DNA of 64,000 nt from a virus (lineage: Duplodnaviria > Caudoviricetes): IMG/VR virus record IMGVR_UViG_3300033757_000296, positions 47,167 through 111,166 of that record; one strand, 5' to 3'. Position numbers and translations under genes: made by a program. The first letter of the stretch is position 1. The number at the start of each line of letters is the position of its first letter. The notes beneath the pieces were generated by a model that was not told the DNA's origin, ran no database searches, and worked only from the letters and a program-made list of their open reading frames with translations. Below are positions 54,485 through 62,582 of the stretch, piece after piece.

Positions 54485-55241
54485 TGTTTTGGCACTTTTC
54501 ACTTATAAGATGGCGACTAGAACCAGAAGTTAAAGTTTTAAAAACTAGACCAACCAGATTATTTGTTTCGGATAGTCATGAACAAATAGGAGAAGTAATA
54601 GAAATCGAAACAGAATATGGGGGAGTTGAAGAAATAGGTAATAAAACTCATAATCTATGGTTTCTCTCAATAGAACGCCGTTTTGGCCGGGAAATATTTT
54701 GGGCGATGTGGGAATTAGGTGATTGGAAAAAGTTAGAGGGAAAACATCAGTGGAGTCATGTTTATGAATAAAGTTCCACGGGTATGGTGTTTTGGTATTC
54801 CAGATTGGTTTATCGATCTCGTCATGAAAACAAAAGAGGAAAACGTTAAAAGATTTACCCATAATGATGGTCTCGTCGATACTATTTATAAAGCCACAAT
54901 TACGTATGGAGAAGTGGAAAAACGAGAATATGTGAGTATAATGTTTGTAATAATTCGTCGAAATAGTGGGTTTGGCAAAGAATTAGAACACGAAATAACC
55001 ACACAATGGGGTTTGTGTAAAGGACCCGGTGCGGAATCTTGGAAAAAAACGTATGGTGATTAAAAATGGACTGGCTTCATCCAATATTAAGTAATAATAA
55101 ACAATTGTTTATCGAATATTATCGGAAAAAACCAACTAAAACAAAAACAAAAATATGTTGTTTTAGCAGTCATGACTACGATTATGGAGAGGCAACAACC
55201 CCTCTTGTTATTGAATTTGAATTAGTATATGGGGTGGCTGA

Positions 55242-56498
55242 ATGATTAGGGATGGTTTAACAACGGATTCGAAGATTGTTCGTCGTATTCCAAAAAAAAT
55301 CGACGAAACTTATGAAACCGACTATCTTGAAAGTGTAGTTCGAGCTTATGATTTGTATTTAGAGGCAAAAACCCTCGAAGGAGCTAAATATCTTAGAGAT
55401 CCTTATGCGATTGCACTATTTTTGGAACCAAGTGGCCGTGTTTTGTCTAAAATTAAGCCAAAATTGCAAGAAGATGGAGAATTAACTTGCAAAGAGTACT
55501 TTGATGCAGTTGCGGATAATGAAATGTCTCGAATTTTGCCTAAAATGACCGAAAGAGAGTATTTGTTTTGTAATTTGGCTGCTCATGGAGGTTTAGGCGT
55601 GCCTAAATATGATGTGATTAGGCTAATTGCTAAGAGTTTGGGACTTAATGTGGGGGAAACCCTGCATTGTTGGGTTTTACAGGACGATGTTTTAGCGATC
55701 TCTTTTGCTTTGGCGAGTAAAAGAGCAATTTTGGAGGGTGTTACTCCGGTTATCGGACTCCCTTTGAACATGATTTACCCTTCCTATACCACTTCACACA
55801 TACGGTTCCCGGCAGTAGTTGAGAAAATACCATCTAAATCAACAATGATTCACGTTCATAAGGATGGAGACCTTTTCAAAATATTCGACTCTGACGGGAA
55901 AGAAGTGGATCTAAATAAAAATATCGTTGACAAGTTAAAAAATATCCCTGCGTCTTATGTAATAGAAGGGTTTATAAATGGGTCTGACCAACTAGTAATA
56001 TGGGACGTTTTATGCTGGAACGACATTTGGCTTTATTTGCGACCGTTAAGTGAACGGGTAAATATGCTATGGAGATTCCACGAATGGAACCAGGAACGTT
56101 TTGTTGTTCGGAATTGGAAAGATTTGCAACAATTTGAAGATAATTACGTATTGAGAAATACAAATTCACTTTATGACCCTACAAAAAGTGATTCTCACAT
56201 CTTTTTGACAGAGGAAACACAAACTGCGGTTCTCAGAGTTGGCGGAGCAAAGGGAAAGAAGACTCCTTGTTTGGTTACTCATGATAAAAAGCCGTTGTTT
56301 GAGTTGGGAGTTAAAATTGACCGCGAGGATTACGGGGATATTGTCGAAGTTTCAAAAAAAGGCGAGGTTGTCCAGATTTTACGCCATGGTACGGCTGTTG
56401 ATACATATAGTGAGGTGATGAGGAAATGGAATCTTCCAAGTTTCGAAGAATATTCGGTTTACAGGATGCCGAAAGGGAGTTGGCCGGAAAGAGAATAG
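55242..56498 (+). CDS. degenerate ATP-dependent DNA ligase homolog
   Basis: IHVHKDGD.FKIF, VIEG, IWDVL, PLSER and Y.P line up with the ligase adenylation domain; KxDGxR and EG motifs are eroded. Confidence 0.6.
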   Translation: MIRDGLTTDSKIVRRIPKKIDETYETDYLESVVRAYDLYLEAKTLEGAKYLRDPYAIALFLEPSGRVLSKIKPKLQEDGELTCKEYFDAVADNEMSRILPKMTEREYLFCNLAAHGGLGVPKYDVIRLIAKSLGLNVGETLHCWVLQDDVLAISFALASKRAILEGVTPVIGLPLNMIYPSYTTSHIRFPAVVEKIPSKSTMIHVHKDGDLFKIFDSDGKEVDLNKNIVDKLKNIPASYVIEGFINGSDQLVIWDVLCWNDIWLYLRPLSERVNMLWRFHEWNQERFVVRNWKDLQQFEDNYVLRNTNSLYDPTKSDSHIFLTEETQTAVLRVGGAKGKKTPCLVTHDKKPLFELGVKIDREDYGDIVEVSKKGEVVQILRHGTAVDTYSEVMRKWNLPSFEEYSVYRMPKGSWPERE

Positions 56499-56660
56499 TA
56501 GGGTGTGAAGAATTTTTTCCAAATGATAATGATGAGACATTTTTCCTCTTACGTTTGATTACATGCTTCATTTCGGTTCCACAAATTAGGGAGGAAATGT
56601 CGATTAAAATGGAGGGGTTTCTGGTCATTGAAAAAACTGGTGTTTCTTGGGAGTGTATTT

Positions 56661-57227
56661 ATGAAGGAAATTAAAGCTAAAGAATTAACCCGTGCGGTTC
56701 TGATGCAACTCAGCCCACACGAATGGAGCCAAATTAACCTTTTCGGTCGAGCTTTCTCTGAAATTGGCCATATTTTAATAGAAGCGGATGCAAAAAAACG
56801 AGGGACATTCGTTTGTGGCTTTTGGAGTGGTGATCCTATCACTTGGACGGAAACTTATGGTGAAGAAGAGAAATTCCATGTTCCATTAAAACGTACCCCT
56901 GCAACTATGGTATTGCGAAAGGAAACATTTTCCTCAACACTTGTTGAATATTTTTCTGCCTTTTTGGATCTCGCATTAACAAGCCATCCCCAACAATCTA
57001 GAAAGTTTTTACCCGATATGTATAGGAGGGGAAATTGGAAAATCTATGGCGGGAGTTGGGGAATGAGAGAGAATTCTTACGACGTTAGGAACGCGGTGTG
57101 GACTTATACTTATGGAACGGATGATGATAGTTTTGGTATTGATATTAGTGAGGTAAAGAAATTTTTAGGTGATGATTATGAGAAGATTCGAAGCGAAATC
57201 GAAAAAGGATTGGCTAAGGAATTTTGA
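56661..57227 (+). CDS. array family protein, two domains
   Basis: WTETYGE and WTYTYG; ATG lies inside the junction 16-mer. Confidence 0.65.
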   Translation: MKEIKAKELTRAVLMQLSPHEWSQINLFGRAFSEIGHILIEADAKKRGTFVCGFWSGDPITWTETYGEEEKFHVPLKRTPATMVLRKETFSSTLVEYFSAFLDLALTSHPQQSRKFLPDMYRRGNWKIYGGSWGMRENSYDVRNAVWTYTYGTDDDSFGIDISEVKKFLGDDYEKIRSEIEKGLAKEF

Positions 57228-60603: not shown

Positions 60604-61008
60604 ATGAGTATGGAATGGTTTGAATATTTAGGGAAATTGAATCTTGATAATATTTATGTAAAGGGATGGTTTTCGGATAATTTCATCATTAAAATCAGAG
60701 CAGACAAGATGTGGTTCCGCAAAAAATATAAAAACGCAATAGCTATTTGTGGGGTCAAAATAGTCAAAACTTATGGTGCATCATTGAAACATGACATAGA
60801 AGGAAGATGGATTAAGCCATTTGCATTTAGAAATGTTGATGGGGAACCTCTAAGTGGTTCCGAAACACTATTTTATAAGGGGAGATTGATTCCGCTAGAA
60901 ATTGCTCGAGAAATTAACAAAAACAAGGGGTATATCCGTCCTTTCGTCACTCAACCACTACATCAAGATTTAACATATTTCAGAGCAGAGTATGGAGGGG
61001 TAGAATGA
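60604..61008 (+). CDS. array family protein, two domains
   Basis: KTYG...HDIEGRWIKP; IPLEIAREINKNKGYI...AEYG. Confidence 0.7.
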   Translation: MSMEWFEYLGKLNLDNIYVKGWFSDNFIIKIRADKMWFRKKYKNAIAICGVKIVKTYGASLKHDIEGRWIKPFAFRNVDGEPLSGSETLFYKGRLIPLEIAREINKNKGYIRPFVTQPLHQDLTYFRAEYGGVE

Positions 61009-61400
61009 GAGGTCGATTAATACGGTTCGGATCAAATATGTTTTTCAAAGGTAAATCTTATGAATTGCCAATGGAAATTTGGAAAGCAATTAAGGATAGC
61101 AACCGAAATATCGACGAGACCCAAAGTATTTATAAATCCGTACTTTTTATGGAAAGTTATGGGGAGGAAGGGCCCCGCCATGATGAGTCGGGGGATTGGA
61201 TTAGTCCCGCGGATTATACCTTTTTTGGCGGAAAAAAGATAGTATATGAAAAAAATGAGACTTATATTTATTTTGATTGTCGGGTCCCGGATGAGATAAG
61301 GGATGAGTGGATACGGAACCGGGGCCAGATCCGTCAAAATATGCCAGAACCGGGAAAGCATTCGTGTTATTATACTTTTTTCCGGGGGGATTACCGGTGA
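61005..61400 (+). CDS. array family protein, two domains
   Basis: LPMEI...ESYGE...HDESGDWISP; VPDEIRDEWIRNRGQI. Confidence 0.7.
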   Translation: MRGRLIRFGSNMFFKGKSYELPMEIWKAIKDSNRNIDETQSIYKSVLFMESYGEEGPRHDESGDWISPADYTFFGGKKIVYEKNETYIYFDCRVPDEIRDEWIRNRGQIRQNMPEPGKHSCYYTFFRGDYR

Positions 61401-62582
61401 ATTGGATATCTTGTGATGGAGATCTATTGTCTGTTCTTGATATGAAATTAGAAAGGTGGCTGGGACCCGAATTTGTTTCTTTTGTGCACGAAAACGTTTA
61501 CTGGGTTCTACCACACGAAGTCCAACGAGACTGGTTGATTGGATTTGGGGTGGACCTTGTTTTCGGAGAGGCTGATGATTGGGATGAAGCCGGGGAATGG
61601 GTTGATTCAAAAGAATATCGTTGGATTTTTGGAATCACTATCCCCCCGCATCGTTGGAGTGGAAAAATTATTCCATCTGAAATAACATCCGAAATGAGAA
61701 GGGGGAAAGGCGAAATGCCAGATCATGATACAAAGGAGTTTAGAGATAATTTTTTCAGGTGTGTTTATGAGTAAGAGAAAATGGCATTATTGCCATAGAA
61801 GACAAATCTTTGCCATCCCAACGAAACTAAGAATATGGCTTGGTAGTGAATTCGAACCCTTTGTTAATGAAGAAAGATATTGGACTCTCGAAAAAGAGGA
61901 GAAGCCCAATCGTCTTTACGGTTTTGGAGTAACTCTTGTTTTCGGGGAAACCGAGGAATGGTGAGTTTATGATTGAAGTATTAGATGGTAAATATATTTG
62001 TAATCAAGATCCCGCGTTTATTCCCATTTCTCTTTTTGGGAACGAAGTAGCTAGAGAGATTCTTATGGAGAAAGGTGTTTGTTTGAGAAACCGAGATAAA
62101 AATATTCATTTTCCAGAATACCACCATGAGAATTGGTGGATTCATATATATGAGTAAACGTTTACCCATTCTTTTTCAAAAAATTCTGTAAAAATAGCCC
62201 ACTGAATATTTCCACTGCCCACCGTAGATAGAACGCCGGGTGTAACCGTTTCCTTTCCGTTTTAATATTTTTTTTAAGTTAGTAATACTACAATATAACA
62301 GTGTTATATAAGTAATTACTTATGCTTTAATCTTAGAATTAACGATCGTTAATTCCATCACGTGATGATGTTCACAATAGGAGTATATAAAACCGTGAAA
62401 CACGTCACGTAAAACTATAAGTAATTGTGATGATATACACATATGTGTAAATTGGTATGGTGGTGATAAATAAAACATGAATAAGAAATAAGGCAATAAC
62501 TGGCAAGTATGCAGGATCACGGTGAACAGTACGTTTACGGATCAACAATACGTAAAAACGATCGAATCTCAGGAGTAATAGT

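Follow-up and report, generated by a model that had tools for sequence, protein, structure and literature searches.

Probable dual coding at gene junctions and short-homology turnover of small-gene cassettes in a predicted virus of Methanobacteriaceae

The small-gene array and its viral setting

The stretch of DNA considered here, called the window throughout, comprises 64,000 nucleotides of the Caudoviricetes record IMGVR_UViG_3300033757_000296 from IMG/VR (positions 47,167 to 111,166 of that record). It contains an array of small genes, and a 16-bp repeat recurs at several of the junctions between them. In this repeat the last codons of one gene appear to double as the ribosome-binding site and start codon of the next, and comparison with natural strain variants suggests that gene modules have been lost, fused and exchanged at such sites.

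The window holds a tailed archaeal virus or provirus, apparently of Methanobacteriaceae. The large terminase subunit (TerL) encoded on the minus strand at 51491-52975 has 42% identity to the TerL of Methanobacterium virus PhiF1. Its identity to a protein encoded by a contig from a Methanobacteriaceae metagenome-assembled genome is 63%, and TerL is followed on the same strand by portal, glycosyltransferase, capsid and tail genes. The array adjoins TerL and is divergent from it, with a TATA-like AT-rich gap between the two. It is 8.6 kb long, and its division into 28 genes, g01 to g28, follows our own gene calls. Neighbouring genes overlap by 4-17 nt at most junctions and G-rich sites are found at nearly all of them. 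The GC skew of the array (G over C) is +0.26 to +0.32, and tryptophan makes up 3.6% of its residues as compared with 1.4% in the rest of the virus. The ratio of nonsynonymous to synonymous polymorphism (pN/pS), determined against strain fragments, is 0.41 for the array genes overall, and they therefore behave as coding sequence. None of ten array proteins compared with Pfam and PHROGs reached threshold, no Rfam family matched the array, and 50,697 phage records searched by tblastn contained no match to g10 or g08.

The array proteins are built from a module of 45-60 aa that consists of a helix (hydrophobic-P-x-E-I-x-x-E), a G-turn, a variable stretch and a last strand with the motif W-x-C/T-x-Y-G/E. 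A second module type has the terminus G-[LWF]-G...W-x-Y-x-V-x-F. Identity among the paralogs of the array is just 20-45%. Proteins with two modules read through the first motif (TWTETYGEEE in g10, QWTHTYGEVE in g18), and internal read-through copies of W-x-C/T-x-Y-G-E are present in g03, g10 (two copies), g18 and others, much as a preliminary description of this DNA had stated for its two-domain members.

The small-gene family appears to be a lineage-specific expansion, since more distant relatives carry g08 beside TerL but have unrelated small genes. These relatives, L001 and L003, show 57-63% TerL identity, and the unrelatedness of their small genes makes them unusable for a study of the junctions. 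A search with a profile of the module returned nothing from 328 genomes belonging to the same order as G001, the genome that contains L001. A scan of IMG/VR with TerL, a scan of species-representative genome contigs with g08 and a metagenome scan with g19 also gave no match, and the metagenome scan with g08 returned one short contig, L055. The g08 protein, for which neither Pfam nor PHROG gave a match, has H-V-H-K-D-G in the window and H-I-H-R-S/D in its relatives.

Table 1. Coordinates of array features in the window and structural differences (E1-E7) between the window and strain variants
Feature	Positions	Strand	Size	Description
Non-coding leader of g01	53538-53554	+		TGGGAG, 8-nt spacer, ATG; encodes no W-E
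Array of about 28 small genes, g01-g28	53552-62157	+	54-188 aa, plus 418-aa g08	Tightly packed or overlapping
Weak junction variant g05/g06	54751-54766	+		TGGAGTCATGTTTATG; upstream end ..WSHVYE-stop
g08	55242-56498	+	418 aa	Conserved, family distinct from the small genes, inside the array; pN/pS 0.06
Junction repeat g09/g10	56648-56663	+		TGGGAGTGTATTTATG; ..WECIYEGN-stop; g10 ATG at 56661
g10 fusion point	56855-56864	+		TTATGGTGAA; Y-G-E codons of internal W-T-E-T-Y-G-E
Junction repeat g13/g14	58174-58189	+		TGGGAGTGTACTTATG; ..WECTYE-stop; g14 ATG at 58187
Junction repeat g14/g15	58346-58361	+		Exact 16-mer; ..WECVYGDES-stop; g15 ATG at 58359
Remnant open reading frame	58705-58785	+	27 aa	Only sizeable gap of the array; two full genes here in L048
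Relic junction g18/g19	59511-59531	+		CAATGGGGGCCGTTTATG; G-rich site and g19 ATG kept
Junction repeat g19/g20	59751-59766	+		Exact 16-mer; ..WECVYGN-stop; left end of g20 indel
g20 cassette	59767-60046	+	280 bp	Repeat-to-repeat unit; present in window, L004 and L054, absent from L048
Junction repeat g20/g21	60031-60046	+		Exact 16-mer; ..WECVYES-stop; right end of g20 indel
E3 left crossover	61161-61167	+		Y-G-E codons of g25, GGGGAGG
g26, two-module gene	61397-61774	+		Halves match g27 and g28; fused or split pair
E3 right crossover	61565-61571	+		F-G-E codons of g26, GGAGAGG; intervening 404 bp missing in L048
Weak junction variant g26/g27	61754-61769	+		TTCAGGTGTGTTTATG; upstream end ..FRCVYE-stop
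E1			280 bp	g20 absent from L048; microhomology is the 16-mer itself; a single copy joins g19 and g21
E2			493 bp more in L051	Two genes in L051 (181 and 184 aa), single g10 in window; crossover at the 10-nt TTATGGTGAA
E3			404 bp	L048 chimera g25(1-54) + g26(58-125); crossover at GGnGAGG of Y-G-E/F-G-E codons
E4			379 bp	g26 absent from L050; crossover between homologous N-termini of g26 and g27
E5			331 bp	Two extra genes in L048, 27-aa remnant in window; deletion between CGGAATT repeats
E6			35 bp	Tandem duplication affecting the g18 end in L048; off the motif
E7			~197 bp	Full second module in g18 of L052 and L053; window homology ends directly after T-Y-G-E codons

The junction repeat and its two readings

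The 16-mer TGGGAGTGTGTTTATG occurs exactly at 58346, 59751 and 60031, with one mismatch at 56648 and with two mismatches at 58174. Weaker variants were read directly at 54751 (TGGAGTCATGTTTATG) and 61754 (TTCAGGTGTGTTTATG). The three exact copies and four variants that had been listed in the preliminary description are thus all confirmed, either by the mismatch search or by direct reading, and the five strong and two weak copies are all located at gene junctions (Table 1). With up to three mismatches allowed, the search found 6 matches as compared with 0.68 expected, and none of 100 shuffles got to 6. The sixth match, at 44071 with three mismatches, is regarded as chance. A scan of IMG/VR with the 16-mer returned 42 contigs with one match each, which are likewise taken as chance. 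No exact direct repeats in the array are longer than the junction 16-18-mers, with which one 18-mer common to g01 and g02 ties.

An exact 15-nt repeat, GGGCCGGATTTATGA, is present at 58927-58941 and 60432-60446. There it encodes G-R-I-Y-E in g16 and g22, which belong to the second module type. The repeat may provide a further short crossover homology, and no strain breakpoint was seen there. At the end of the last gene, g28 (62135-62200), the terminus ..W-I-H-I-Y-E-stop has an embedded ATG that opens a 13-aa open reading frame, M-S-K-R-L-P.., the first codons of which match the start of g27 (M-S-K-R-K-W..). This reading frame looks like the stump of a further cassette at a truncated end of the array. 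Downstream of it there is T-rich, terminator-like DNA with a fall to 25% G+C.

In frame 0 the codons TGG GAG TGT GTT TAT G encode W-E-C-V-Y-G/E, and a stop codon follows within 0-3 codons. In frame +1 GGGAG lies 7 nt ahead of an ATG in all five strong copies, and TGGGAG is a predicted Shine-Dalgarno (SD) sequence. The ATG, at positions 14-16 of the repeat, opens the next reading frame as its first plausible ATG, and the genes overlap by 8-17 nt at these junctions. The upstream stop overlaps or abuts the downstream start and the SD lies 5-10 nt before that start, which is the layout of translational coupling. Both the use of these starts and the coupling are predictions from this layout.

Could the repeat be a simple by-product of paralogy, a conserved C-terminal peptide written in the preferred codons of the virus, with the SD, the ATG and the crossovers incidental to it? 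The motif is a genuine protein feature, as it is read through inside the two-module proteins. TGT, TAT and GTT are the commonest codons for their amino acids, and the ATG is also found in 25 of the 29 copies of Y-G/E that are not at junctions, tyrosine being mostly TAT. The glutamate codon does not follow this explanation. It is GAG in five of five junction copies in the window, although GAG accounts for 33% of the glutamate codons of the array and for 14% of those in the remainder of the virus (p=0.004), and it is GAG in seven of seven when two junctions found only in other strains are counted (TGGGAGGAAGTTTATG in L051 and TGGGAGGCCGTTTATG in L052). The W-E dipeptide is confined to junction copies, the internal copies having W-K, W-T and so on. 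Of 9 junction copies, 7 have an SD-like word at a distance of 5-11 nt upstream of the embedded ATG, and of the 29 other Y-G/E copies 5 have one (Fisher p=0.0017). The leader of g01, which is non-coding, carries the same SD hexamer as the junction repeat, followed by eight nucleotides and the ATG. At the g18/g19 junction the DNA has outlasted the loss of the peptide frame: the homologous DNA in L052 encodes ..K-Q-W-E-A-V-Y-E-stop, and in the window the frame of g18 has been altered by a deletion and the motif is no longer encoded. Over eight strain comparisons, which are partly non-independent, there are no substitutions in the 16-mers where about 8 would be expected from the flanks. The GAG bias, the enrichment of W-E and of the SD-like word, the g01 leader, the g18/g19 relic and the absence of substitutions together argue for a constraint on the nucleotides of the junction repeat that exceeds the requirements of the protein, and a by-product of paralogy is an unlikely account of the repeat. 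The preliminary description had proposed that the motif is dual-coding. At the sequence level this was borne out by the layout of the reading frames, by the synonymous choices and by the restriction of W-E to junction copies. It had also proposed a check of the synonymous positions, and here it is the glutamate codon and the third base of codon 4 that point to conservation beyond protein need.

In L048 (1371-1440) there are three tandem copies of a 17-18-nt unit, TTCTTAA(A)CAATGGGGG, of which the window has one. The expansion shifts the frame of g18 to ..K-Q-W-G-A-V-Y-E-stop, by which a junction-type C-terminus is recreated.

It is also conceivable that the overlaps serve programmed frameshifting and that neighbouring modules are made as fused proteins. 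There is a +1 frame step at every WECVY junction, and fused two-module relatives of split genes are known (g26 as compared with g27 and g28, and g10 as compared with the two genes g10a and g10b). On the other side, the repeat has no slippery heptamer, a well-spaced SD and ATG is found at each junction, and the same SD-ATG layout stands before the first gene, where there is nothing upstream to fuse. Programmed frameshifting is the least probable of the explanations considered here.

Strain comparisons

The comparators are short metagenome contigs from other samples that were recovered by protein searches with paralog alignments. The variants come from Logan SRR27686861 (L048) and from the ENA assemblies ERZ27284530, ERZ28615120 and ERZ15185821. 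L004 and L056 are 99.8% and 100% identical to the window, respectively, and are colinear with it, with no structural variation. Eight contigs, L048 to L055 (L048, L049, L050, L051, L052, L053, L054 and L055), are 89-98% identical to it. Seven structural differences, E1-E7, were mapped to base level (Table 1).

The loss of g20 from L048 (E1) has its two ends in the exact 16-mers on either side of that gene. E2 and E3 have theirs in the [Y/F]-G-E codons of the motif. In E2 the microhomology TTATGGTGAA corresponds to the Y-G-E codons of two internal motifs, and g10 of the window appears to be a fusion of the two L051 genes. The chance that at least three of six events would have both ends in any of the Y-G/E hexapeptide windows, which make up 8% of the array in total, is roughly estimated at 5e-6. 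The strain breakpoints predicted by the earlier proposal that the repeat acts as a crossover site therefore exist, and the proposal is supported by them.

Exchange between strains is indicated by L054. Its divergence from the window is 13.7% in g19, as far as position 59740. A stretch to 60130 with one mismatch (at 59767) follows, after which the two diverge again. One edge of what seems to be a recent exchange between L054 and the window falls in the 28-nt interval that holds the g19/g20 16-mer, the switch in divergence being at 59741-59767. Along the whole array, divergence forms a gene-by-gene mosaic. Removal, fusion and exchange of modules at the repeat are thus seen in natural strain variants.

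Are these differences artefacts of assembly or sequencing, with contigs mis-joined at repeats? The comparators are all metagenome contigs, and the differences between L004 and the window are mainly homopolymer indels that resemble sequencing errors. The repeats at the breakpoints, on the other hand, are only 2-16 nt long and the k-mers of short-read assemblers are longer than that. The variants were obtained from several samples independent of one another, the two contigs L052 and L053 are in agreement, and open reading frames are kept in all products. The flanks have diverged by 4-14%, which means that these are distinct strains. Because the repeats are shorter than k-mers, several samples are involved and all products have open frames, mis-assembly is a very unlikely source of the variants.

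Some other observations were made on the array in these comparisons. The genes g03 and g04 (54162-54484) seem to be two parts of one gene that has been interrupted by a divergent stretch rich in indels (54341-54452). The corresponding region of L055 (2-316) holds a single 104-aa open reading frame, which is a third tandem paralog of g01 and g02. In the window 60468-60572, which covers the end of g22 and the doubtful g23, is the only poorly coding stretch of the array. Here 7 of the 17 substitutions between the window and L004 cluster, and it may be a decaying cassette.

Mechanism of module turnover

An integron-like system would be another way to account for the array, with the 16-mer as the core site of a site-specific recombinase encoded elsewhere in the virus or in the host. 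The genes are small and promoterless, all have the same orientation and follow a single promoter-like region upstream, and the loss of one cassette took place exactly between two identical sites. These features are offset by several others. No attC-like inverted repeats were found in the array, and a scan of the array proteins and of ten other open reading frames revealed no integrase or recombinase, which is in keeping with the preliminary description, where no recombinase was visible in the window. These ten include two of the IS605 OrfB type (at least ~48 kb from the array), a PD-(D/E)XK nuclease adjoining the array, an SNF2 helicase and methylases. The crossover microhomologies range from 2 to 16 nt and have several different sequences, and the 16-mer is not palindromic. 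A site-specific cassette system is therefore very improbable. With no recombinase or attC-like repeat found, the turnover fits recombination or replication slippage between short direct repeats. The repeats that are longest and closest together, 280 bp apart, gave the cleanest event.

The events located at the motif preserve the frame, the SD and the ATG, and for this reason selection alone could enrich them. The data are compatible with both possibilities, that the repeat is a mechanistic hotspot and that selection merely keeps the events which occur there. A dedicated recombinase is not needed for either, as ordinary short-homology recombination and selection for translatable products are enough.

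Other genes of the window and its relatives may be mentioned in this context. The two IS605 OrfB/TnpB-type genes are at 1851-2921 and 4219-5391. In the SNF2-family helicase (917 aa, 9744-12497) the helicase motifs are separated by an inserted LAGLIDADG-like domain (residues 393-458), which may represent an intein or the insertion of a homing endonuclease. In L005, with 86% TerL identity, an IS200/IS605 pair (Y1 transposase and OrfB, 277-1811 of L005) stands directly beside TerL. At this position the window has the PD-(D/E)XK nuclease gene and the array.

Possible descent of the protein module

A profile of 19 modules was compared with 1.8 billion representative sequences. It found the proteins of the virus itself and then almost only multi-repeat proteins of DUF4379 (PF14311, treble-clef), with E values from 7.6e-9 to 6e-4; 9 of the 10 non-self matches scanned are multi-repeat DUF4379 proteins. 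In hhalign the module was aligned to DUF4379 with 90% probability over 31 columns, which cover the N-terminal two thirds only. Single modules did not match DUF4379 at its Pfam gathering threshold, or even at E <= 10. DUF4379/CapR-like repeats have been proposed to be DNA-binding modules of homing-type nucleases (PMC12350094). They share with the window modules the pattern hydrophobic-P-E-I-x-x-E-W ... G ... W-W-x-C-x-x-G and the occurrence in tandem units (PMC12350094; PMC5513546). The zinc ligands of DUF4379 were not seen in the window modules, which have no His after the Gly and no C-P-x-C. Cysteine is present in only about half of the modules, and the proteins stop at Y-G/E, before the G-H and C-P-x-C ligands, and have no nuclease domain. 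The modules are also separate cistrons, whereas those of DUF4379 are repeats of one chain. The similarity is a lead on descent and does not amount to membership of the family. With low confidence, it may be suggested that the array encodes small proteins with an early or accessory role, and that these descend from a DNA-binding repeat of the DUF4379/CapR type, associated with nucleases, whose zinc ligands have been lost.

The hydrophobic-P-x-E-I helix had suggested a relation to AbrB/SpoVT. A profile search of PDB sequences with the module did not support this idea and gave no AbrB-type chain at E <= 10 and only marginal matches to ribosomal protein S3Ae (E=0.004). AbrB/MazE is not among the listed fold matches of a low-confidence model of g14 (pLDDT 67). 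Look-ups of g24 and g20 in the ESM Atlas gave nothing usable.

The favoured explanation

The explanation favoured here combines dual-coded translational coupling with short-homology turnover of cassettes, and its probability is put at roughly 0.72. The array would be one long operon of about 28 small cistrons, divergent from the terminase gene, which arose as a lineage-specific expansion of the 45-60-aa module. The codons for the gene-terminal strand would be read twice. In frame 0 they would give the C-terminus of the upstream protein, and in frame +1 TGGGAG would act as SD, TGTGTTT as a 7-nt spacer and ATG as the start of the next cistron, the upstream stop lying 1-14 nt past this embedded start. 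With such a dual reading each cistron would carry the coupler for its neighbour. The recurrent 10-18 nt at module ends would also provide short homologies for unequal or illegitimate recombination, and crossovers there would remove, fuse or exchange whole modules. The products could survive because the frame, the SD and the ATG are left intact.

Several observations weigh against this explanation. For the g20 event the only source is a 3.4-kb Logan contig (L048). Three to four of the seven indels break elsewhere than at the motif, namely at CGGAATT, at the N-termini of g26 and g27 and at the 35-bp tandem duplication, and the right edge of the L054 identical block is 85 nt inside g21 and not at a 16-mer. 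The events at the motif may be over-represented merely because they yield viable products. TGT and TAT are common codons in any case, and the synonymous argument rests on GAG and the third base of codon 4 (p=0.018) only. The array proteins are under every Pfam and PHROG threshold, the AlphaFold2 (AF2) models have a predicted local distance difference test (pLDDT) score of 67 for g14 and 39 for g24, the latter being unusable, and the fold matches of the g14 model, small beta-barrels with Z <= 6.3, are within the stated noise of the tool.

Why has a virus kept such a word at its gene junctions? A speculative answer, and a rather doubtful one, is that the dual-coded word is maintained since it makes modules portable, in which case the array would be a recombinase-free cassette system of an archaeal virus. 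If so, any module ending in W-E-x-V-Y-G/E could be deleted, inserted, fused in frame or passed between co-infecting strains and be expressed at once. Insertion would perhaps proceed via excised circles, as with the PeSL mini-circles, and mini-proteins derived from a DNA-binding repeat could diversify fast against host defences.

Comparison with known systems

With the favoured explanation, one short DNA word would be constrained at three levels, as protein motif, as ribosome site and start, and as recombination homology. This would offer a testable model of how orphan mini-gene arrays in viruses expand with their expression kept. The proteins may descend from a nuclease-associated DNA-binding repeat. 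Modular shuffling at boundary repeats, known from bacteriophages, would then also occur in a tailed virus of methanogens, which are a group that has been little sampled. It would involve not only transcription signals but also a coupler of translation placed within coding sequence, and it would cover in-frame fusion and splitting of domains as well as the turnover of whole genes.

Among the closest known systems are the PeSL (promoter early stem-loop) cassettes, which are small genes shuffled in T4-type phages by recombination between repeated promoter/terminator motifs (Arbiol et al. 2010, PMC2839356; Comeau et al. 2014, PMC4122927). A similar motif has been proposed for the haloarchaeal tailed virus HGTV-1 (PMC3950731). 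In both the PeSL cassettes and the array, a short expression signal is repeated before many small non-essential genes of a hyperplastic region, close relatives differ by insertions, deletions and replacements whose ends fall in the repeats, and there is no dedicated recombinase. PeSLs are intergenic and consist of a promoter and a terminator hairpin, whereas the element of the array is 10-18 nt long and translational, with an SD, spacer and ATG predicted from sequence. This element is contained in the upstream gene and there specifies a conserved strand at the C-terminus, and the same codons within two-module genes give in-frame fusions or splits of domains. The element has no promoter and terminator stem-loop of the PeSL type, as no inverted repeats were found within the array. 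The size of a PeSL is roughly 50-70 nt.

Short homologies at gene borders that permit exchange of whole genes between related phages are also a feature of the modular-evolution model, reportedly described by Susskind and Botstein, in which lambdoid and dairy phages are said to have conserved 'linker' sequences at the boundaries. The linkers of lambdoid and dairy phages are usually viewed as intergenic or incidental homology. The linker of the array differs in that it is dual-coded and a nucleotide-level constraint on it is visible.

Coupling of overlapping stop and start codons (ATGA, TAATG) is common in operons of bacteria, archaea and phages. The array resembles these operons in its overlaps of 4-17 nt and in having the SD 5-10 nt upstream in the preceding open reading frame, but its coupler is one repeated word tied to the peptide motif of a paralog family and would therefore travel with the module. 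Integron arrays share with it small promoterless genes in one orientation behind one promoter region, and gain and loss at repeated boundary sites. They differ in that the array lacks attC inverted repeats, no IntI/attI was found, and crossovers occur at other short homologies too. The shuffling of genes at boundary repeats is already known in phages. What is new is its archaeal, in-frame and dual-coded form.

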